64,000 nt of DNA. It comes from an uncultured archaeon (GTDB lineage: Archaea > Asgardarchaeota > Heimdallarchaeia > Heimdallarchaeales > Heimdallarchaeaceae). Under the pieces are notes generated by a model. It searched no databases, had not been told where the DNA came from, and worked only from the letters and a program-made list of their open reading frames with translations. Below are positions 6,197-63,675 of the stretch, piece after piece (within the stretch, counting starts at the first letter, position 1; each line of letters opens with the position of its first letter). The translations under genes and the position numbers were made by a program. The stretch spans positions 12,935 to 76,934 of the forward strand of contig CAZHRF010000009.1 in NCBI GenBank assembly GCA_964534625.1. The letters are read 5' to 3'.

Positions 6197-7276
6197 CTAT
6201 TGAGGTTTTAATGGTTTTATTTCTGTTTTAGAGACTTTTTGATGAAACAAGTAACTTTTCCATTCATTTTTACAGCTACAAGATATTGGTTGCATTAAAT
6301 ATTTTACCTTCTGAGAAATTGTAAAATTCTTTAAGGCCTCACTCACTAATTTGTCACATGTACCACAGTTATGAGCCCCTCGCTCTTTTCCTGCTGCTAC
6401 AGGTTCACAAATAACACGGAGATCAGGATGGGCCTGTTTGAGTTCCTTACACACATGTAAAAGAGACCATAACCATGGGGGTCGATAATTTCCTTCTTCA
6501 AAAAGTGTAGAAAGAAGAGTACCTCTATGGATACTAATAGAATTAATAGAAATAGTATCGATACCCAACTCAACAATTTTTTTAACACTAGTAAAAATGT
6601 CAATAATTGCATCATATTCAGAAATGAAAAGTGGTTTGAAAATAAGATAGGCCTTGATATTAGCCCCTGAAGATAATACAGCAGAAGCGGCTTGAGCAAA
6701 GTCTTCCCAAAAGAATCCTTTGTTGATAGAGTCACGTAAAATGTTGTTATTTGCACTTTCTAATCCGATGGCTATCTCAACAACTGACGGGTCAAGAAAT
6801 TGAAAAATCTTGTTGAGGATATCTTTATTCACATATTCGGGACGTGATTCTAAAACAATTTCTTGAATCTGTGGATAGAGAGAGAGTTTTTCTATTAAAG
6901 TGAGAAGAACATGTTCGGGAACTTCTTTTGGATCTAAAATACTACCACTAGTAAAGAGCTTAACAGAAAGGATTTGATCTTCAGTAAGTTTCTCTTTAAG
7001 ATGCAGCTTAAATTGGTCTATCATTTCATCAAAATTAGTCTGCTTGGGATTATCATATAAGTAACCGCAGAATGAACATCCTCCGCTCCCAGATAAAGCC
7101 CAAGAACATCCACGTGTGGGGAGGATGAATACAAGGGCTTTTGCAGCCTTAGAGCGTAAACGGTGGTCTTCAATCCACGAGATAACTTTTTTAGAATGTG
7201 AACGAGAAGATAAAGAGGACTTGCGTATCTCATTTAATATTTGTCGTAAAATAGTATTAGATTTTGATGTCATCAA
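6197..7276 (-). CDS. raSEA: Archaeosine biosynthesis radical SAM enzyme RaSEA
   Basis: TRGCSW..SGGCSFCGY (CX7CX2C), KLFTSGS, ESRPEYV, IGLES, RPPWLWS, RGAHNCGTC; directly downstream of arcS. Confidence 0.9.
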   Translation of the reverse strand: MMTSKSNTILRQILNEIRKSSLSSRSHSKKVISWIEDHRLRSKAAKALVFILPTRGCSWALSGSGGCSFCGYLYDNPKQTNFDEMIDQFKLHLKEKLTEDQILSVKLFTSGSILDPKEVPEHVLLTLIEKLSLYPQIQEIVLESRPEYVNKDILNKIFQFLDPSVVEIAIGLESANNNILRDSINKGFFWEDFAQAASAVLSSGANIKAYLIFKPLFISEYDAIIDIFTSVKKIVELGIDTISINSISIHRGTLLSTLFEEGNYRPPWLWSLLHVCKELKQAHPDLRVICEPVAAGKERGAHNCGTCDKLVSEALKNFTISQKVKYLMQPISCSCKNEWKSYLFHQKVSKTEIKPLKPQ

Positions 7277-9187
7277 TTATAAACTCCTTTTTTTACGTAT
7301 TTGGGCAGCTATACCTGAGGTCATTTTATTCATATCACAACCAGCAACAACAGCTGTACCCGTAGCTAAGACAAGATTATCTTTAGTGATCAAAATCTCA
7401 TCTAAAGGTCGAATACGAGGGTCAGCCTTGACAATACCAACAGCAAAAATGCTACTGCCTCGGATATTTGTGGTAGCAAATTCCATCTTTGCATAGGTTA
7501 AATCAATAATCTTCTGTGCGTGAGTAGGATCAAGTGTAAGAAAACCATCAGCATAACGTAAAGTAGCAATCTGTTCATTGTCAAGAAAAATTTGTAAATC
7601 GCGAGGAAACCTACCTTTAATGATAGTATCAGCAGGAAAGAGAATATCACCAACACCTTTTCCAAATTGATGATTGGCTATGGTACGTAAACGTATAATC
7701 ATATCAGAGTAAATGCGGCGTTCAGGCGTATAAGAACGGATGACGGAAGTAAGGGTTGAAGTAAGAAAATCTAACGAGTCATAACTTGTTGGATGACTAT
7801 CAGGAGAAGTATGGATGATTTCCCAATCACGTTGTTGCTTAATTGAATTAAGAACATCAGTATAACCAGAACCATGGGTGTGATTGATAATAGTAAGGTC
7901 AGAAGGGTACTTATCAAGAACAGAGAGAAGGAGATCAGATGTAAGAGAAATCTCTTCAGAACACCAATCCCCAGAAACAGGAATGTCATAGAAACGACTA
8001 GGATAAAGATCTTCTAATTCACGAGGAACGACAGAAAGAGGAGAGGTGATAATGATCTCAGAAAGTAAAGCACGATGAGATTTAACTCCTTTACGTAAAG
8101 CCCGAATAAAACGGCGATGGGAAAAAGATAGAGAATATGGTTTACGCGAAGAGCAAGGAAAAAGAATAACAATATGAGCAAAAGGATCAGGAGTGAAGAA
8201 ATCACGAATACGAGAACGAAATTCGGTTATACTAGGCCGATAGATAGATTCGTTACCAATACATTTTACAGGGGCGGAAGTAAGCAAAGGAGTACGGTTA
8301 CGTATATACGAACCATAGGAGGAATCGAAATGCTTCAAAGCAGCTGCAAACGTAACAGAATTGTGAATATCTTGTTCAACTAATGTACGAAGAGTGCCTT
8401 CTTCAAGAGCAAAATAGATACGAGAAATAGCATTTTGGAGGATGAAATTGTTGTGAGAGAAAAGATTAGGAGGATTAGAAGAACAATGAGGACAATAACA
8501 AGGAGGATGCGAATCTAAAGGATAATACCTATCTAAAGTGAGAAAATAACCAGAAGAAGGAGAAAGATAATAAGCAAAAGAATTATCGAAAAAATCAATA
8601 CCTGAATAAACAAGAAAAGAAAAATAACTAGGGGGAATAGGACCAGGAAGAAAAAGGGCAATATCAGGAGAGAGACGTTGACGGAGAGTAAAAAGACTTT
8701 GAGAAAGTTTTCGTTGATTAAAAAGGAGAGAATGAAAACCAGAAAGAAGGAAAAAAGAACAATCAGAATCTAAAACGGGATCAATAAGGGGAGAATCAAT
8801 AAAATCAATAGGGAGAGTGAAAATATGCTGAAAAAGTTTAGAATGAGAAAGAAACTGGTCAATATAACTTTCAAAGTCGGGTTTGCGGAGATCATAAGGA
8901 GTGGGAGCGGGATAAAAAGGCTGAGACGAAAGAAGAAAAGATGAAGAAAGAGATTTGGACTCTTTATTAGGAGGAAAAAACCAGTGAAGTGTGGGGGGAG
9001 AAGAAAAATCTTCACAAGAGAGAGATGGAGGGGTGGAGAGAGAAAAATAACCAGAAAATCCGTGGGGAGAAGCGGGAGGTTCAATAGATAAAAGACCAGG
9101 AGATAAAGAATAATTGGAATTAGTTTCTGATAAAATACGAGCAAAGGCTTGTTGGTAATGTGGTTGGAAGTAACGCAAGGTAATCAC
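7277..9187 (-). CDS. arcS: Archaeosine synthase subunit alpha ArcS (TgtA2) with C-terminal PUA domain; probable GTG start at 9187 (ORF track extends to 9274)
   Basis: GIDFFD, CYCPHC Zn site, PCSSRKPYSLSFSH, TSPLSVVPRELE, YDIPVSGDW, QFG..G, PUA motif ADPRIRPLDEI. Confidence 0.88.
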   Translation of the reverse strand: MITLRYFQPHYQQAFARILSETNSNYSLSPGLLSIEPPASPHGFSGYFSLSTPPSLSCEDFSSPPTLHWFFPPNKESKSLSSSFLLSSQPFYPAPTPYDLRKPDFESYIDQFLSHSKLFQHIFTLPIDFIDSPLIDPVLDSDCSFFLLSGFHSLLFNQRKLSQSLFTLRQRLSPDIALFLPGPIPPSYFSFLVYSGIDFFDNSFAYYLSPSSGYFLTLDRYYPLDSHPPCYCPHCSSNPPNLFSHNNFILQNAISRIYFALEEGTLRTLVEQDIHNSVTFAAALKHFDSSYGSYIRNRTPLLTSAPVKCIGNESIYRPSITEFRSRIRDFFTPDPFAHIVILFPCSSRKPYSLSFSHRRFIRALRKGVKSHRALLSEIIITSPLSVVPRELEDLYPSRFYDIPVSGDWCSEEISLTSDLLLSVLDKYPSDLTIINHTHGSGYTDVLNSIKQQRDWEIIHTSPDSHPTSYDSLDFLTSTLTSVIRSYTPERRIYSDMIIRLRTIANHQFGKGVGDILFPADTIIKGRFPRDLQIFLDNEQIATLRYADGFLTLDPTHAQKIIDLTYAKMEFATTNIRGSSIFAVGIVKADPRIRPLDEILITKDNLVLATGTAVVAGCDMNKMTSGIAAQIRKKRSL

Positions 9188-9285
9188 TAACTGAATAAGT
9201 ACATAACATAAAAGGAGAATTAATAAAAAGAATGTGGTAAGAAAGAAATAAGGGCATAAAGGTAGAATGTACAAGAGTAAGGAAT

Positions 9286-9406
9286 ATGAACTACCACCGC
9301 CTGAAGGTAGATGCTTTCCTGCTTCATAGAAGTTACCTCAATAATCTGAGGTCTTACCTCTTCTTCACAGCGTCGTCTATAGTTCCCGTCGTCCCGACGG
9401 TACATA
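9286..9406 (-). ncRNA. TnpB-type omega RNA (reRNA) scaffold in element copy A
   Basis: GTACCGTCGGGACGACGGGAACT..ACGCTGTG..GTAAGACCTC..GAGGT..TGAAGCAGGAA..hairpin..TTCAT matches the typical IS605/IS1341 right-end RNA architecture; compensatory stem changes relative to copy B. Confidence 0.7.
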
Positions 9407-9610
9407 GGTATTTTACACACATGTTATTGAATTTGCATCGGAAGATCTCAATACCCTTATCTGGGTAGGTACAGTATAATAAACATCATCGTCGTTTAAT
9501 GTCTATCCCTATTTTCTACTTTCCCCTTTTCCTTTTTGTATCGTAACACTCTTGGTTTTCGATATGGTACCAAAACAAGTAAACAAAGATATTGTACTTA
9601 AACAACGTTT

Positions 9611-9624
9611 GTATATTTAAACTT
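9611..9624 (-). promoter_or_regulatory. Putative BRE/TATA promoter inside element copy A
   Basis: AAGTTTAAATATAC just inside the left end; AAGTTTAAACATAC at the same position in copy B. Confidence 0.5.
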
Positions 9625-9734
9625 CTTTTACTTCTTTTCATCCCCGCCCTAAAAGGCGGGTATTCAAGACGGGTCTCAGTAAAACTCCCCCTAAAAACGT
9701 TTAAAGTTAATTTAGGTGTTTTTAAACTTAAAAA

Positions 9735-20408: not shown

Positions 20409-20476
20409 TCTTTTATTCTTTTCTCGAGATGAAAAAAGCTAACTCTGGTATGGATAAACCCTCACCAGGGAGGTTT
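20409..20476. repeat. Dispersed ~70-bp hairpin repeat, copy 1
   Basis: TCTTTTATTCTTTTCTCGAGATGAAAAAAGCTAACTC-hairpin-GAGGTTT, shared with two copies at 63.5-63.7 kb. Confidence 0.7.
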
Positions 20477-26298: not shown

Positions 26299-26401
26299 GG
26301 GCTAGTAGCTCAGCTAGGTAGAGCAACGGACTCTTAAGTAAGCAAAAAGAACTTGTGGAGTAATCCGTCGGTCGCCGGTTCAAATCCGGCCTAGCTCGCC
26401 A
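26299..26401 (+). tRNA. tRNA-Lys(CUU) with 26-nt intron at 37/38 (26337-26362), CCA encoded
   Basis: GGGCTAG/CTAGCTC acceptor stem; anticodon stem ACGGA/TCCGT; loop CTCTTA|A; BHB motif with CTCT/GGAG central helix and two TAA bulges; GTTCAAATC. Confidence 0.93.
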
Positions 26402-30205: not shown

Positions 30206-32392
30206 ATGTCTGATAAAGAAATAAATTTGCGTGTTGCAGAAAGTAAACAACGAGATGTAGGTAGAGGCAAAGTACGTTTAGATAGTATGGCAATGTCTAA
30301 GATTGGTGTTTCGACTGGTGATATTGTAGAAATTGAGGGAAAACGCACAACAACAGCTGTAGCCTGGCCTTCCTACCCGGAAGATTTGAAAAAAGATATT
30401 ATACGTATGGATGGTGTTGTTCGAAGAAATGCTGGTGTCTCCCTTGGAGACAAAGTTACAATAAGAAAAGCAAAAGTCAGTGTGGCTAGACAAATAAATC
30501 TGGCTCCCGAACAAATGTCTGTTAATATTGATTTTAGTTTTGAAAACTTTGTGAAGCGCAAACTTCTTGGGCAACCTTTATCACGCAAAGATACTGTATT
30601 AATCCCCATATTGGGTCGAGCTATACCCTTCTCTGTTGTAAGCACGGTTCCATCTGGTATTGTGGTTGTAACTGAAGCAACTCAACTTAAGGTTTCTGAT
30701 AAACCTATGTCTGAAGGTGAAAAAGCTAGCCCAACGGTGAGTTATGAGGATATAGGGGGATTGCATCAAGAGATACTAAAAATTAGAGAGATGGTAGAAT
30801 TACCGTTAAAGTTTCCGCAATTGTTTGAAAAATTAGGTATAGACCCACCAAAGGGCGTTCTTTTACATGGTCCTCCTGGGTGTGGTAAAACTCTAATTGC
30901 ACGGGCTGTGGCATCAGAATCAGCAGCTCACTTTATTGTTCTTAATGGTCCTGAAATAATGAGTAAGTTTTATGGTGAATCTGAACAAAGGTTACGTGGT
31001 CTGTTTAAAGACGCTGAAGATAATGCACCTTCAATTGTTTTTATTGATGAGATAGACGCAATTGCCCCAAAACGTGAGGATGTAACGGGAGAAGTGGAAA
31101 GACGTGTTGTAGCTCAGTTACTAGCTCTTATGGATGGTTTGGTTTCTAGAGGGCAAGTTATTGTCATAGGCGCCAGCAATAGACCTAATGCCATAGATCC
31201 TGCCTTAAGACGTCCGGGTCGTTTTGACAGAGAAATTGAGATTCATGTTCCAGATAGAGATAGTAGAGAAGAAATACTCCTTATACATACACGAGGCATG
31301 CCCTTATCTCCAAATGTAGATCTCAAAACATTATCTGATGTGACTCATGGTTATGTGGGTGCTGATCTAGAAGCATTGTGTAGAGAAGCAGCGATGAAAA
31401 CTTTGCGCCGTGTTTTACCTAAAGTAGATTTTAGGGAAGAAACCATACCAACAGAAGTATTGGATAAATTAGAAGTTATTCATGATGACTTTTTACAAGC
31501 ACTAAAAGAAATCACACCGACAGCTGTAAGAGAAGTATTTATCGAATCACCCAATGTACCTTGGACAAGTGTTGGTGGTTTAGATGATGTTGTAAACCGA
31601 ATTATAGAGGCTATCGAGTGGCCACTAAAAAATCCAGACGCGTTCAAGCGCATAGGTATTAGCCCTCCAAGAGGTATATTGTTATATGGCCCTCCTGGTT
31701 GTGGTAAAACATTAATTGCACGAGCAGTGGCAACAGAAAGCGAAGCAAATTTTATTAGTGTTAAAGGACCAGAAATTCTTTCTAAATGGGTTGGCGAAAG
31801 CGAAAAAGCTATTCGAGAGGTGTTTAGAAAAGCACGTTTAGCCGCACCTTCTATTGTCTTTTTTGATGAAATGGATTCCCTAACCCCATTGAGAGGAAGA
31901 AGCACAGATAGCAATGTAACAGAACGGGTCATAAGTCAATTACTTACCGAATTAGATGGCCTTGAGGAATTAAAGGATATAGTAGTTTTAGCAGCAACAA
32001 ACCGTCCAGATATTGTAGATCCAGCTCTTCTTAGACCGGGTAGATTCGATAGATTGATTTATGTAAATCCTCCAACTCTAAAAGGAAGAGAAGAAATATT
32101 CAAAATATACACAAAAACAATGCCCCTTGAATCTAATATTAGTATTAAGGAATTGGCAATCGACACTGACGGTTTTGTAGGAAGCGATATAGAGGCTTTG
32201 TGTCGAGAAGCAGGAATGACAGCTTTAAGAGCGGATTTTAATACTCCACAAGTTAAAATGTCTCATTTCAAAGAAGCATTGAAAGATATTCATCCAACTG
32301 TTACACCTGATATGGTCAAATATTTTGATAGCATCTCTGAGAGATTTAAGAGACGAAGTCAAATGAGCACACCAAAGATAGGTTTTTCATAA
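30206..32392 (+). CDS. cdc48: CDC48/VAT AAA+ ATPase
   Basis: N-domain plus two AAA modules: GPPGCGKT twice, IFIDEID/VFFDEMD Walker [11 protein letters not shown] and [10 protein letters not shown]. Confidence 0.97.
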
Positions 32393-36482: not shown

Positions 36483-37246
36483 GGTGTAATTTGATGATGG
36501 GAAATATAACCATTATCCCTCTCCGCTTGCCTATTGTCAAAAAGGATGATAAATTAAGTCAATTAATCATAAAAAGTATAGAAAAACATTCTTTGATTAT
36601 TGAGGATAATGACATTTTTGTTATAGCTCATACTATAATTTCAAGAATCGAAGGAAAAGAGTATAATCTCTCTAAAATTGATCCCTCTCCCTTTGCTGAA
36701 GTTCTGGCTCGAAAAACTAACAAAGATCCTTGTCTGGTTGAATTAATTTTAAGAGAATCCTTAAGTGTGCTTAAAGTGAAGAATAACAACATAATTACAA
36801 AAACAAAACATGGTTGGATCTGTGCCAATTCGGCAGTTGATCAGTCTAATTCGAAACCTGGTCATGCCATAACTTTACCTGTTGATTCAAATGAATCTGC
36901 TAAACAGATTGGTCAAATTCTTACGAATAACTATTCTAAAAATATTTCGGTGTTGATTTCTGATACTCAAGGTCGGGCATTACGACGTGGAGCAGTGAAT
37001 GTTGCAATTGGAGCGTATAATTTTTCTGTTATAGACGATGCAAGAAAGCGTAGGGATATATTTGGATATCCTTTGAAATCAACTATAATCGGATTGGCTG
37101 ATGAAGTATGTGCTGCTGCAGAGTTGGTGATGGGGCAAGCTGATGAAAAGGCACCTGTTGTGTTGATAAAAGGTTTTAAACAACGGAGTTGTGTGACAAG
37201 TATAGACGAACTTCAATATATTGATGAGAAACGGTTATTTCGATAG
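36479..37246 (+). CDS. cofE: Coenzyme F420-0:L-glutamate ligase
   Basis: SRIEG, ANSAVDQSN, LP.D...SA, ISDTQGRALRRG, ADE..AAAELVMGQADE..PVV. Confidence 0.9.
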   Translation: MRCNLMMGNITIIPLRLPIVKKDDKLSQLIIKSIEKHSLIIEDNDIFVIAHTIISRIEGKEYNLSKIDPSPFAEVLARKTNKDPCLVELILRESLSVLKVKNNNIITKTKHGWICANSAVDQSNSKPGHAITLPVDSNESAKQIGQILTNNYSKNISVLISDTQGRALRRGAVNVAIGAYNFSVIDDARKRRDIFGYPLKSTIIGLADEVCAAAELVMGQADEKAPVVLIKGFKQRSCVTSIDELQYIDEKRLFR

Positions 37247-37383
37247 GTTATTGAGTGAACACTTACTTTAAATAGTAACGTCTAATTATTAAATTATATG
37301 AAGAACAACTTATGGTCTACTAGCCAAATCATAAGTCATAAAAAGATGATTATTAGCTTACATCTTGGGAATGAGGTGTTTAT

Positions 37384-38106
37384 TTGTTTAAAGGTTTAAG
37401 AAAATCTCCCTCTGAAAAAGCGAATGAATTACTTGGAAAAGCAAAACTTTCAGCACAAAAAGGAAACTATAAAGAAGCACATGAATTTGCAAATAAAGCA
37501 GCTGAGATCTTTAAAGATGAAGTAAAAGATCGAAAAAAAGTAGATTTTGCAAAAGCTCTTGTTTATGAGTACAAAGGAGAGTTATCAATTAAAAAAGATA
37601 AAGCACGAGAAGCAGCAAACTTTCTTGGTCGAGCAGGGGGTTTTTATCAACGTTTGAATATGACCTTAGAACTTGAGAGAGTGTATCTCAGACAAGCTCA
37701 AATTCTTAGAATTATAGCTAAAAGGTTTATGAAGGATAGACAATTTTTAGATGCTGCGTCATTTTTTGAACAAGCTGCTATGTGTTATATGAAGCTTAAA
37801 ATGAATTCAGAAGCCATAGACTGTAAAGCAAAATCTTATGTTTCAAGGGCAGCTGCAGAGCAGTCGATTTCTGGGAGAAAAGTTTATTTGAAAAAAGCTG
37901 TAGAATTAATAGGTGAAAAAGGATCAGACGAACCAGTAATTAAGGGTCATTTAGCATATTATAATGCACTATTTAATGAAGTAGAAAAACCAGAAAAGGC
38001 ATTAAGATTTTATGCTGAAGCGTTACAATATTATCAAGTTGGAACATTACAATCAAGAATCGATGAAATTAAAAAGAAAATTGGTGAGCTGACTAAAGAT
38101 ATTTAG
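37384..38106 (+). CDS. TPR/alpha-SNAP-like helical repeat protein
   Basis: Repeated A-rich helices EAANFLGRAGGFY, DAASFFEQAAMCY, KALRFYAEALQYY; GAGGTG SD-like motif upstream. Confidence 0.65.
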   Translation: MFKGLRKSPSEKANELLGKAKLSAQKGNYKEAHEFANKAAEIFKDEVKDRKKVDFAKALVYEYKGELSIKKDKAREAANFLGRAGGFYQRLNMTLELERVYLRQAQILRIIAKRFMKDRQFLDAASFFEQAAMCYMKLKMNSEAIDCKAKSYVSRAAAEQSISGRKVYLKKAVELIGEKGSDEPVIKGHLAYYNALFNEVEKPEKALRFYAEALQYYQVGTLQSRIDEIKKKIGELTKDI

Positions 38107-38259
38107 AACTTTTAGCAATTTGAAGAAGACTAGTATGTTCAAATAATGAAAGACATAGTTTTGTTTCCTTTTTCCTCTATTACTTGTCATGAATAAACTG
38201 GGATTTCTTATTTCGCAATAGTTAAATAGTTGTTCGTTATATTTGCAAATAGTGATTAT

Positions 38260-38526
38260 ATGGTTAGTATATGGCAAGCATTAAAAGTGACACTAATATT
38301 CATATTTTTCGGATTAATACCCTTTATAGTATTCATATTTGCTGTAATAACAATTCAACAAATAATGACCGTGGATGTAAGTGATGGCGTTTCCTTATCA
38401 ATACCTGTTGATAGTGTAGGTGGATTTTTGGGTTTTTCTGTCCTTGCTATTATTAGTGCATTGATTTTTTTCATGGGATTATTTAAGGGAATAGGAGATA
38501 TAACTGAAGCAGCATTAATTGAGTAA
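38260..38526 (+). CDS. Small two-TM membrane protein (ORF track start 38230)
   Basis: Two long hydrophobic helices. Confidence 0.6.
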   Translation: MVSIWQALKVTLIFIFFGLIPFIVFIFAVITIQQIMTVDVSDGVSLSIPVDSVGGFLGFSVLAIISALIFFMGLFKGIGDITEAALIE

Positions 38527-43524: not shown

Positions 43525-44466
43525 ATGGATATAGAAAAAGGTAAAACCATATTTGAACGAATTATGAAAGAGATGAGAAAAAGGATTGTAGGGAACGATT
43601 CGGTAATTGAATTGCTCTTTGCAACTATGTTGGCAAACGGACACGTGTTACTTGAAGGTGTTCCTGGAATTGCAAAAACGTTGATGGCAAGTACTCTTGC
43701 GGAAGTAATTGATGCAAACTTTAAACGAATCCAGTATACACCTGATATGTTACCGGCAGATATAACTGGTGGTCTAGTACTCGATCGAAAGATAAATGAG
43801 TTCAAGTTTATGCGTGGACCTCTTTTTACTAATATTTTATTGGCGGATGAAATTAATCGAACCCCACCAAAAACTCAAGCTGCCCTTCTAGAGGCCATGC
43901 AAGAAAGACAAGTATCAATAGGTACTCAGACTTATACTTTACCAAATCCTTTTTTTGTGATAGCTACACAAAATCCAATAGAAAGTACTGGTGTTTATCC
44001 TTTACCTGAGGCACAAATTGACCGTTTTCTTGTTAAAATACCTGTATTTCATCCCAGTTTGGATGATGAAATAATAATGCTGAAAATGAAACGAGAAAAG
44101 ATGTTTGCAGATGTAAATAAGGTGGTTGATGTTCAAACAATCTTACACCTTAGGCAGTTAATTGAAAAGGAAATTGTGGTTAGCGACCAGATTTTAGAAT
44201 ATATTGCAAAACTAGTCAATGCCACACGTGATGTACCTTCGCTTTCTTTAGGTGCTAGTCCACGTGGTTCTATAGCTTTGCTTAATCTTAGTCGTTCTAT
44301 AGCTGCAATTAGAGGTAGAAATTATGTTGAACCAGATGATATTAAAGACATTTTCTATCCAATAATGAATCATAGGCTTATCTTATCTCCTGATGCGGAA
44401 ATTGAACAAATTAGGATAGAAGAAATAATATCTACTATTTTAACAAAAGTTGAAGTTGTAATTTAA
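43525..44466 (+). CDS. moxR: MoxR family AAA+ ATPase (module 1)
   Basis: GHVLLEGVPGIAKT, RIQYTPDMLPADITG, LLADEINRTPPKTQAALLEAM, ATQNP, YPLPEAQIDRF, GASPR. Confidence 0.95.
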   Translation: MDIEKGKTIFERIMKEMRKRIVGNDSVIELLFATMLANGHVLLEGVPGIAKTLMASTLAEVIDANFKRIQYTPDMLPADITGGLVLDRKINEFKFMRGPLFTNILLADEINRTPPKTQAALLEAMQERQVSIGTQTYTLPNPFFVIATQNPIESTGVYPLPEAQIDRFLVKIPVFHPSLDDEIIMLKMKREKMFADVNKVVDVQTILHLRQLIEKEIVVSDQILEYIAKLVNATRDVPSLSLGASPRGSIALLNLSRSIAAIRGRNYVEPDDIKDIFYPIMNHRLILSPDAEIEQIRIEEIISTILTKVEVVI

Positions 44467-46666: not shown

Positions 46667-46852
46667 ATGTGAGTCAATTTTTTGACAAATTGTTTTTTTC
46701 TTTATTATCATATATCAGTTACTATCAAAACTCATCCTAATTCTGACAGAACAGACGTCTAGCTGCGTTTACTATGACATCTCTTTTTACTAGTCTATCT
46801 TCTTGAAAGCCCTGTCCTTGGGGGTGGGGATGAAAAGAAGAAAAACGATACC

Positions 46853-46866
46853 AAGTTTAAACATAC
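46853..46866 (+). promoter_or_regulatory. Putative BRE/TATA promoter inside element copy B
   Basis: AAGTTTAAACATAC, positionally conserved with copy A. Confidence 0.5.
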
Positions 46867-47067
46867 AACCATTTTGTAAGTATGATGTCTTTGTGTACGT
46901 GTTTTGGTACCATCTCGAAAACCAAGAGTGGTACGAGACAAAAAGAAAAAGATGGAAGTAGAAGATAGGGGGTACACATTAAACAATAATAATGGGTATA
47001 CGTATCTACCTAAGTAAGGGTATTGAGGACTTCCGATGTAGAGTCGATACATTGTGTGTACTAGAAC

Positions 47068-47186
47068 TATGTACTGTCGGGACGACAGGAACTATAGACG
47101 ACGCTTGTGAGGAAGAAGTAAGCCCTCATTTTGAGGCTACTTCGTTGAAGCAAGAAACCATCTGCCTTTAGGCAGTGGTAGTTCAT
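47068..47186 (+). ncRNA. TnpB-type omega RNA (reRNA) scaffold in element copy B
   Basis: CTGTCGGGACGACAG hairpin, ACGCTTGTG, CCTCA/TGAGG stem, TGAAGCAAGAA, terminal hairpin, TTCAT; one frame reads TVGTTGT..ACEEEVSP, typical of TnpB C-terminal tails overlapping the RNA. Confidence 0.7.
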
Positions 47187-47879
47187 TCATTCATCCTTTT
47201 TTTCTTTTAACTCTTCTAAAGTCAACTCTTTTCCACAAGACTTGTCTCCTTCTGGACAATAACCAAAGAATTCACAGAATGCACCTGTTTCTTTAAATAA
47301 TGTCGGGGCAACTTTCCTTACTTCTTTTAACATTTTGATTGCTAGCGTACGTATCTCTTTCTGAGCTCGTGTGCATATCCTTCTAGCAAAAAATTCAATT
47401 AGGGCATGTGCGTTCATAGATAAAATTAGTTGAGTTGATGTGGCATTGGGAAGTATGTAACGGGCATCTTCTTTAGGAATATTGTTATTAATCATTTTTT
47501 GATAAAAATTGAATAATGCCTCTGAAATGTTTTTATATTCGTCGTAAAAATCAGAATTTTTTATTTTATCAGGTATAACCACCTTAAAGTTTTCTGCGTT
47601 AACGTATCTTTGTGATTGTTGAGAAAAACTCGCAATTCTTTTTCTAACCAATTGATGACTACATACGCGGCTAATTCCTGAGATATAAAAGACAAAACTA
47701 TTATGTTCAATGATTGATAAGTGACCCGATTTTATTATTTTTTGAAGATATTCAGAACTTTTTCTATTTGCATTGTTTTTTATATCCTTTAAAAACTGAT
47801 CTCCTGAATAACATATCACTCCTGCCATTTTAGCTATTAATTCGCTTTCTTCAGGATAAGAGATTAGATGAACTTCCAT
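47187..47879 (-). CDS. thyX: FAD-dependent thymidylate synthase
   Basis: GHLSIIEH, ISRVCSHQLVRKRIASFSQQSQRY, EDARYILP, R....AQKEIR. Confidence 0.95.
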   Translation of the reverse strand: MEVHLISYPEESELIAKMAGVICYSGDQFLKDIKNNANRKSSEYLQKIIKSGHLSIIEHNSFVFYISGISRVCSHQLVRKRIASFSQQSQRYVNAENFKVVIPDKIKNSDFYDEYKNISEALFNFYQKMINNNIPKEDARYILPNATSTQLILSMNAHALIEFFARRICTRAQKEIRTLAIKMLKEVRKVAPTLFKETGAFCEFFGYCPEGDKSCGKELTLEELKEKKDE

Positions 47880-57098: not shown

Positions 57099-58088
57099 AT
57101 GTCAAAAGGATCAAAGAAAAAAGAAGAAGAACAAGAAGGCGCAAAAGTTACGCCTCAAGATATTAAAAGAGTATGGGATGAAATACATGAAGAGCTTAAA
57201 CGAGTGATTATAGGAAAACTTGACATACTCGAGAACATGTTCATTGCTCTCCTAGGTGGTGGTCATGTTCTAATGGAAGGTGTTCCTGGTGTAGCAAAAA
57301 CAGTGATGGCAAAGAACTTCGCTAACACTTTGGGTTGTGAGTTTAAAAGGATACAATTTACTCCTGACTTATTGCCTTCAGATGTTGTAGGTACAACTAT
57401 TTATGACCCTAAAGCTGGTACCTTTAAAATGAGAAAAGGGCCTATTTTCTCTAATATAGTACTAGCTGATGAAATTAATAGATCCCCTCCAAAAACTCAA
57501 GCTGCATTGCTAGAAGCAATGGCGGAAAAGCAAGTTACTGTTGAGGGTACTACCTTTAAAATGCAACCACCATTCATTGTTATTGCAACACAGAACCCTG
57601 TAGAACAAGAAGGTACTTATCCATTACCCGAAGCACAAGTGGATAGATTTATGCTTAAACTTAATGTTGGTCTTCCAACAGATGAAGAAGAATCTAAAAT
57701 CATTGATTTAGTTCATAGAAGTGCCTTTAGAAGTGCCCGAAGGGTAACAACTCCAATGACAATAAACCGCATGATTGATACGGTTCAATCCTCTATATAC
57801 GTACATCAAGATATACAAGTGTATATTAGAGATGTGGTTGTTAGTACAAGGAAAGACAGAAGACTGATTTTAGGTGGAAGTCCTCGTTGTAGTATTGCAT
57901 TATTAAATGCATCAAAAGCAGTTGCCGCTATGAGAGGACGTTGGTATGTTATCCCTGACGATGTGAAGAGAGTAGCTAAAATAGGTGCTTCTCACAGGCT
58001 ACAAACAAATCCAGAAGCTGAACTAGAAGGCATTACAGGACCAATAGTGATGGATGAGATATTAAAGAATGTAGCAATTCCTTTATAG
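57099..58088 (+). CDS. moxR: MoxR family AAA+ ATPase (module 2)
   Basis: GHVLMEGVPGVAKT, RIQFTPDLLPSD, LADEINRSPPKTQAALLEAM, ATQNPVEQEGTYPLPEAQVDRF, GGSPR. Confidence 0.95.
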   Translation: MSKGSKKKEEEQEGAKVTPQDIKRVWDEIHEELKRVIIGKLDILENMFIALLGGGHVLMEGVPGVAKTVMAKNFANTLGCEFKRIQFTPDLLPSDVVGTTIYDPKAGTFKMRKGPIFSNIVLADEINRSPPKTQAALLEAMAEKQVTVEGTTFKMQPPFIVIATQNPVEQEGTYPLPEAQVDRFMLKLNVGLPTDEEESKIIDLVHRSAFRSARRVTTPMTINRMIDTVQSSIYVHQDIQVYIRDVVVSTRKDRRLILGGSPRCSIALLNASKAVAAMRGRWYVIPDDVKRVAKIGASHRLQTNPEAELEGITGPIVMDEILKNVAIPL

Positions 58089-63512: not shown

Positions 63513-63534
63513 TATTCGCTTTTTTTCTTTTGTA

Positions 63535-63675
63535 ACTTTTTTATTTTCATGTGATCAAAAAATCTAACTCGGGGATAGGGGATCCTGTCACCCGCGAGGT
63601 TTTATATCTTTTTTCTTTTCTTGTGATCAAAAAAGCTAACTCTGGGATAGGTGACCCTGTCATAAGCGAGGTTTT
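63535..63675. repeat. Two tandem copies (72-bp period) of the ~70-bp hairpin repeat
   Basis: GTGATCAAAAAA(T/G)CTAACTC at 63551 and 63623, each followed by a GGATAGG-loop-CCTGTC hairpin and GCGAGGTTTT. Confidence 0.8.

Follow-up and report, generated by a model that had tools for sequence, protein, structure and literature searches.

The two related segments called copy A and copy B in this 64,000-nt stretch of DNA from a Heimdall-group archaeon (the window, on contig C9 of the assembly) are best explained, with high probability, as members of a PATE family of IS200/IS605, that is, miniatures derived from tnpB-bearing elements and mobilised in trans, in which the omega-RNA scaffold has been kept. 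Copy A is a protein-less miniature of 393 bp at 9286–9678 on the minus strand, and copy B is the same element in a form near the family consensus, 396 bp at 46791–47186 on the plus strand. The original prediction had described two diverged copies of an ORF-less IS200/IS605 element, each with a promoter-like box in its left end and a TnpB omega-RNA scaffold. Its boundaries and its identification of the element are both correct, and the two copies share the terminal sequence GGTAGTTCAT. It had also stated that neither tnpA nor tnpB is encoded, which agrees with our analysis: the PATE copies contain no ORF of more than 85 aa, and of tnpB only a C-terminal remnant of some 50 codons can be detected. 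The putative target and transposon-adjacent motif TTTAC lies directly 5' of the left end at 9679–9683 (minus strand) in copy A, which is preceded by TTTTAC, and at 46786–46790 (plus strand) in copy B, which is preceded by TTTTTAC; in copy B it is paired with AAAG located 19 nt inside the element. The host assembly comprises 3.37 Mb in 120 contigs and is 89.8% complete, and DNA of the locus has been found in four DNA runs of one microbial-mat metagenome study, whereas the public runs listed for the organism include none of RNA.

The family extends well beyond the window. A BLAST search of the assembly with copy A gave 41 matches, including at least 11 near-full copies of about 385–393 bp (396 bp in copy B) and two copies without the left part, so that the further copies looked for in the genome do exist, with unrelated flanks. 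In a multiple alignment including the flanks, similarity begins right after TTTAC or TTTAT and stops right after TTCAT. All family copies finish with GGTAGTTCAT, giving a sharp and common right boundary, and insertion 3' of TTTAT or TTTAC is accompanied by neither a target duplication nor any direct repeat bracketing the element. Against the nine other full copies in the comparison, copy A shows 72–75% identity, while the copies other than A are 86–100% identical among themselves (copy B, 86–91% to the others). The copies on C38, C33, C19 and C15 are 98–100% identical, and those on C38 and C33 are 100% identical despite different flanks. Because these two identical copies occupy different sites, the sequences indicate that the family was mobile very recently, with a transposase then available. 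Judged in the same way, copy A is the oldest full-length member, partly decayed and the most diverged of all: its left-end guide AATA is mismatched, its left-end spacing is 18 nt, its right-end hairpin is weak, and an upstream stem conserved in the other copies is broken. When copy B was used as a DNA query against 60 related genomes, the PATE was not found; the sole match, in the sister genus, covered the final ~38 nt of the right end. Exact-pattern scans for the left end in metagenome and viral contigs, and for the right end in metagenome contigs, gave no matches.

The window contains other repeats. The repeats D1–D4 and I4–I5, collected window-wide, turned out to be unrelated to the PATE copies. 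Direct-repeat segments at 43639–43913 and 57261–57535 (plus strand), 78–79% identical with an identical 13,622-bp spacing, look like paralogous coding genes. A 72-nt unit is present in two tandem copies of 85% identity at 63528–63671, and a related 49-nt piece lies 43 kb off at 20412–20460.

The ends of the element are imperfect subterminal palindromes without terminal inverted repeats. The family left hairpin is CCCCGTCC-TTGA-GGGCGGGG and the right hairpin is CCAtCTGCC-TTTA-GGCAGTGG. In copy A, the left-end hairpin CCCGCC-TTTTA-GGGCGGG (9642–9660, minus strand) folds as DNA at −12.1 kcal/mol (z about −3.7), and the left end of copy B folds more weakly (z −1.5). The order is reversed at the right end, where the hairpin of copy B reaches −8 kcal/mol (z −3.0) and the mismatched one of copy A −4.5 kcal/mol (z −1.2). 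The distance from the cleavage site to the foot of the left hairpin is 19 nt in the family and 18 nt in copy A. In IS608, TTAC is recognised by AAAG, with 19-nt spacing between the cleavage site and the hairpin (PMC3201880). As the target lies outside the element, each insertion constitutes a fresh test of such a rule. Over left ends and the single-hairpin minis described below, a TTAT target is accompanied by the guide AAAA 19 times, by AAAG never and by another sequence a few times, whereas a TTAC target is accompanied by AAAG in 6 of 9–10 cases and by others, including AAAA, in the remaining 3–4 (Fisher's exact p ~2–4e-4). The IS608-type target/guide rule thus holds family-wide, with copy A as an exception. 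Accordingly, the left-end pairing of AAAG with TTAC proposed earlier stands for copy B and fails for copy A (AATA, 18-nt spacing), and the right-end pairing of GAAA with TCAT, claimed for both copies, is found in copy B and is approximate only in copy A. The likeness to IS608 of Helicobacter pylori includes TTAC with AAAG 4 nt before the left hairpin, the 19-nt spacing and a right cleavage site that follows the right hairpin after a few nt. Unlike IS608, most copies here combine TTAT with AAAA, the right cleavage site is TCAT, which ends about 8 nt away from the hairpin (in IS608 it is TCAA, at 10 nt), and the genome has non-autonomous derivatives only.

Even smaller elements with these ends are scattered through the same genome. 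At least 11 single-hairpin minis of 43–47 bp, REP-like and without the omega-RNA scaffold, are found at different loci, for example on G000:C2, C3:129047–129093, C7:~31522–31568, C21, C25, C27:~31966–32010, C31, C32, C38:~2375–2421 and C51. TTTAY precedes every mini, which opens with the left end's first ~19 nt (guide AAAA or AAAG included), continues with one hybrid hairpin whose 5' arm is of the left-end and whose 3' arm is of the right-end type, and closes with TAGTTCAT, the tail of the right end. Such minis could either have arisen by recombination between the two similar hairpins or be mobile in their own right. A decayed miniature of ~175 bp at G000:C41:11093–11267 (minus strand) combines the left end with the terminal ~95 nt of the right end, and matches the covariance model R1 (see below) weakly at 38.8 bits.

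The origin of the short copies can be read from longer elements with the same ends. Such tnpB-bearing elements are located at C30:32997–34399, C7:61047–62143 and C16:~36960–38371, with truncated ones on C4, C64 and C27, and their tnpB products have the domains HTH_OrfB_IS605, OrfB_IS605 and Cas12f1-like TNB. The left end, the TATA-like box and the right end of the PATEs align base for base with the elements on C30, C7, C16, C4 and C64. According to this alignment, a PATE is made up of ~85 nt of left end (hairpin and TATA-like box), a further 31 nt, a 25-nt scrap from the 5' region of tnpB, and then the diverged last ~190 nt of tnpB with the right end. The last ~50 TnpB residues are recovered from the short copies by tblastn, and the junction between left end and scrap is seen as a joint in contigs from four public runs. 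On the basis of the alignment, the tblastn remnant and the reproduced junction, the PATE is placed as a deletion or mosaic derivative (PATE/MITE) of IS200/IS605; comparison of the sequences shows each short copy to derive from a tnpB-bearing element by internal deletion or as a mosaic. The internal TATA box claimed for each copy corresponds to the TATA-like box TTTAAATA within the left end of copy A (9614–9621, minus strand; recognised by its sequence) and TTTAAACA in copy B (46856–46863, plus strand). Its counterpart in the long elements, TTTTAGCATA, lies ~45 nt upstream of the tnpB start codon, and the box of the PATEs is therefore presumed to be the tnpB promoter. The best-conserved interior segment of the short copies, at 46906–46934 (plus strand) in the window with equivalents in all of them, forms a 9-bp bulged hairpin, GGTACCAtCTC-loop-GAGTGGTAC. 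The tnpB scrap that was kept lies within this segment, and the hairpin arms look like those at the right end (CCATCT...AGTGGTA); the segment could mark a pseudo-end that took part in forming the deletion derivative.

The autonomous relative with the same ends, which the original prediction proposed to look for, was found in part within the genome and in part outside it: tnpB-bearing elements are present here, and an element with both tnpA and tnpB occurs in the sister genus. Complete elements of the latter type are found there at G001:C8, G001:C4 and G005:C94. The one at G001:C8 is arranged as TTTAC, AAAG, left hairpin, a 149-aa TnpA (Y1_Tnp, E 1e-35), a 429-aa TnpB and a right end finishing with GGTAGTTCAA, and its TnpB is 52–57% identical to the TnpB fragments of the Heimdall genome studied. 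This element is homologous to the PATE family in both its left-end hairpin and its right end, and the left hairpin shows a compensatory change, CCATG...CATGG in the sister genus versus CCCCG...CGGGG in the genome studied.

Within the 89.8%-complete assembly itself, neither an HMM search nor tblastn with TnpA of the sister genus detected a Y1 transposase (PF01797). Comparison with an intact sister-genus TnpB shows damage in every cognate tnpB that is fully assembled. The C30 gene is collinear with it over residues 9–427, with the RuvC D/E/D residues and the zinc-finger cysteines present, and carries one frameshift from a single extra G. This frameshift is spanned at single-copy depth by contigs of four runs without any indel or in-frame variant; an intact copy may exist elsewhere. 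The C16 gene has a stop codon and a frameshift, the C7 gene lacks residues ~135–246 by internal deletion, those on C4 and C27 are truncated, and that on C64 is cut by the contig start. Parts of tnpB 5' regions on C41, C112, C57 and C76, as well as several left and right ends, stop at contig ends; because at least four tnpB 5' parts end in this way, an intact cognate gene may simply be unassembled. The contig ends concerned are those of C41, C112, C57, C76, C37, C99 and C74 for left ends or 5' parts of tnpB, and those of C64, C25, C70, C72, C101, C113 and C114 for right ends or 3' parts of tnpB. The only clearly intact TnpB is a 425-aa protein encoded at G000:C42:7112–8386. Since it is only ~27% identical to the cognate family, over the C-terminal half, it belongs to a second, unrelated TnpB family; pieces related to this type occur at C4:109910–110434, C19:46966–47364 and on C120. 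A TnpB encoded elsewhere, as originally supposed, is thus represented by cognate elements with the same ends, none of which is intact in the assembly, where TnpA is also missing. With no tnpA and no intact cognate tnpB assembled, present activity of the family is unproven. In the four microbial-mat runs, the summed contig depth over L027:1464–1577, which equals the G000:C30 left end, is ~50x that of unique flanks, and for the C30 element it is ~15–30x over the tnpB 5' part and ~1.5–2.6x over mid tnpB. This suggests that the community holds many more left-end-bearing fragments than full tnpB genes, depth here not being equal to copy number.

The state of these genes bears directly on the possibility that the short copies are inert fossils, the transposase and the nuclease having been lost from the lineage so that nothing now uses the scaffold, whose persistence would only reflect the young age of the copies or their having been copied from long elements. 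The unassembled tnpA, the damage to every fully assembled cognate tnpB with the C30 frameshift repeated in four independent run assemblies, the visible degradation of copy A, and an RNA part that is no more conserved than the rest of the element all fit this reading. It is opposed by the two copies identical at different sites and the four at 98–100%, which place a transposase in the cell very recently, by the tnpB 5' parts and right ends that stop at contig ends and may belong to an intact gene, and by the ~10% of the genome missing from the assembly. On balance the fossil explanation is a real but rather unlikely one, and trans-mobilised PATEs remain the preferred reading.

The part of the element that would matter to a TnpB is its right end. 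The last ~135 nt of the PATEs correspond to the tnpB 3' end and the right end of the long elements, and in the C16, C4 and C64 elements the equivalent ~135 nt overlap the last ~50 tnpB codons and end at TTCAT. The predicted omega-RNA scaffold lies at 9286–9422 (minus strand) in copy A, where its 3' limit is the right-end cleavage site TCAT, and at 47052–47186 (plus strand) in copy B. RNAalifold analysis of 18 right ends from the genome gave a 5' hairpin CCGUCG/CGACGG, a long nested helix and a terminal hairpin, the nested helix being CUUGU...GAAG...CCUC[variable loop, 5 to ~55 nt]GAGG...CUUC...GCAAG. A covariance model, R1, was built from 21 right ends (135 positions, 22 pairs) and searched in 47 genomes of the order. 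It identified 34 sites in the own genome, copy B being the top match (162.8 bits) and copy A scoring 134 bits (E 2.5e-37), and further sites in G001, G002, G005, G031, G035, G037 and G045. In most of these other R1-positive genomes, the matches abut the 3' ends of open tnpB frames of 410–462 aa; frames of 410–429 aa are met with in this position in six genomes of the order.

The original prediction had set these structured right ends against the chance that they are merely decaying IS ends without covariation. None of the three conditions that it named as refuting was confirmed. The compensatory change that it pointed out, CCGTC/GACGG in copy A versus CTGTC/GACAG in copy B, is real, and strong covariation emerged once relatives were added. 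In an alignment of 44 sequences, which was fitted to the R1 model for these counts, 90.6% of the cells form a standard pair versus 74.4% in shuffles, the structure has five helices, changes on both sides are observed in 19 of the 22 pairs, and the covariation score is 0.367 versus at most 0.114 with slid partners. Recombination between subtypes of the element could have brought in much of the covariation within the genome. The single-sequence fold of the last 175 nt of copy B is not significantly better than that of shuffles (z −1.67), and thus support for the structure rests on covariation. These comparisons identify the right-end RNA as a genuine tnpB-associated structured RNA of the omega-RNA scaffold type. 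Conservation among the PATE copies is no higher in the omega-RNA segment than elsewhere in the element, which gives no specific indication that selection acts on the RNA within PATEs. Under gathering and E-value thresholds, no Rfam family covers the element, the best sub-threshold matches over it are at chance level, and only tRNAs pass in the window. One of these, a 100-nt tRNA at 26299–26398 (plus strand) missed by ARAGORN, is probably an intron-containing archaeal tRNA. The Rfam sot0042 model gave only a 23-nt match in the left end (E 0.68), and the right-end RNA is therefore not a sequence member of that family.

By position and by analogy with characterised TnpB systems, the predicted guide of each copy is the flank past its right end: ATTCCTTACTCTTGTACATT at 9266–9285 (minus strand) for copy A, and 47187–47206 (plus strand) for copy B, overlapping the 3' end of the convergent thyX together with its stop codon. 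The most likely function of the element is that of a selfish non-autonomous transposon whose right end supplies the omega RNA. A Y1 TnpA would have moved the copies in trans by single-strand 'peel and paste' transposition, with insertion 3' of TTAT or TTAC presumably selected by pairing with AAAA or AAAG in the left end. Transcription from the left-end promoter would yield an RNA ending in the scaffold and ~16–20 nt of right flank. A TnpB provided in trans could use this RNA and, after excision, cut the empty donor site (TTTAY and the right flank), and homologous repair of the cut site would restore the element, which is the known homing or retention role. If a compatible TnpB is present, each guide would most likely target only its own empty donor site, TTTAY plus flank, promoting retention by homologous repair.

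A wider role had also been proposed, in which each insertion produces a new guide in a dispersed, self-propagating system, so that the copies together would programme TnpB against other loci or invaders for targeting or defence and not for self-retention. Each copy would indeed bear a different 3' guide, and stand-alone omega RNAs can act in trans in other systems. When 24 predicted 16-nt guides from right ends were compared with the rest of the genome, allowing up to two mismatches, only chance-level matches were obtained; none lies behind TTTAY apart from one low-complexity match behind TTTAT, and there is none for the copy A guide. The guides are also whatever flanks the insertion, as for any IS200/IS605 element, and no intact cognate nuclease was found. 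The proposal of a dispersed guide system is accordingly not sustained, and a guide library is an extremely improbable explanation. Since the guides lack targets elsewhere, nothing points beyond ordinary homing or retention at the own donor site. A further reading is that the lineage has lost both transposase and matching nuclease, and that the host, or a different RNA-guided protein, has adopted the self-promoted right-end RNAs as dispersed regulatory guides, the minis forming an archaeal REP-like system. As a whole, including as candidate partners the C42 TnpB or a nuclease-dead derivative and, as an example of use, RNAs antisense to the 3' ends of convergent genes, such a takeover is quite improbable. 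Retention of a selfish PATE at its donor site is the reading followed here.

The genes adjoining the two copies invite the further question of whether the host uses the insertions. A tRNA-Lys(UUU) gene (9735–9811, minus strand) is a neighbour 56 nt upstream of copy A, outside the element. Also outside it, downstream on the same strand, are arcS and raSEA (6197–9274, minus strand), identified by the Pfam domains DUF5591, TGT_C2 and PUA, by NCBIfam ArcS (365.6 bits) and by RaSEA TIGR01210 (324.6 bits, above the cut-off); the best ArcS relatives are in Candidatus Heimdallarchaeota MAGs with 47–49% identity, which makes an Asgard origin of the DNA plausible. The earlier statement that copy A points into an arcS-raSEA operon is right as to the downstream genes and the shared orientation. 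The right end of copy B abuts exactly the stop codon (47187–47189) of the convergent thyX (Thy1, E 1e-62; 47187–47879, minus strand). An exapted regulatory element, whose promoter and structured RNA serve the host by driving or modulating arcS-raSEA or by acting antisense to thyX, would accord with the co-orientation of copy A, with the position of copy B, from which read-through would be antisense to the thyX 3' end, and with the TATA-like box retained in all copies. Against this, the copies are found in many unrelated contexts with no common neighbour, and none of the 60 related genomes searched contains the family, which leaves no conserved insertion. The start of arcS probably lies about 150–240 nt beyond copy A and does not directly adjoin it, leaving room for a promoter of its own, and insertion next to a stop codon is expected from the AT-rich target TTTAY. 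Exaptation is thus very improbable.

Non-autonomous elements of this kind are known from other organisms. PATEs of IS200/IS605 have been described in Haloquadratum walsbyi (PMC3119063) and Geobacillus stearothermophilus (PMC10055086), and PATEs encoding omega RNAs for use in trans have been published (PMC10055086). The family described here resembles known PATEs in having no ORF, in its multiple copies, in subterminal-hairpin ends common to tnpB elements of the same genome, and in a right-end omega RNA needing TnpB in trans. It differs from them in its Heimdall-group Asgard host, in that no transposase or intact cognate nuclease has been assembled in the same genome, and in the extra ~150-nt interior, including the tnpB 5' scrap, that is kept. 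According to Altae-Tran et al. (2021), as summarised in PMC10691335, stand-alone mobilised omega RNAs without an effector or transposase exist beside effector loci and act in trans. The stand-alone RNAs of OMEGA systems are likewise mobilised guide-RNA loci without effector or transposase, in a genome with effector-bearing loci of the family; in contrast to the present case, where action in trans is predicted and the assembled effectors are broken, their action in trans was shown by experiment. There is also a likeness to the IS1341-type (tnpB-only) elements and sotRNAs of archaea, as the long relatives here are tnpB-only with an RNA overlapping the tnpB 3' end.

The idea of a stand-alone guide RNA, put forward in the original prediction, had therefore already been published (PMC10055086, PMC10691335), and the PATE family is a well-supported new example of established stand-alone guide-RNA elements and not a new kind of system. 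Current understanding is unchanged in that stand-alone omega RNAs and their use in trans are documented and activity in this genome is unproven. The locus offers a clean natural Asgard example of IS200/IS605 shrinking to promoter and guide-RNA cassettes, and illustrates natural retargeting through joint changes in left-end guide and target motif. It also provides an omega-RNA family with a covariation-supported structure that is absent from Rfam, and, since intact partners (TnpB and TnpA) are available from the sister genus, the family could feed the mining of TnpB tools.
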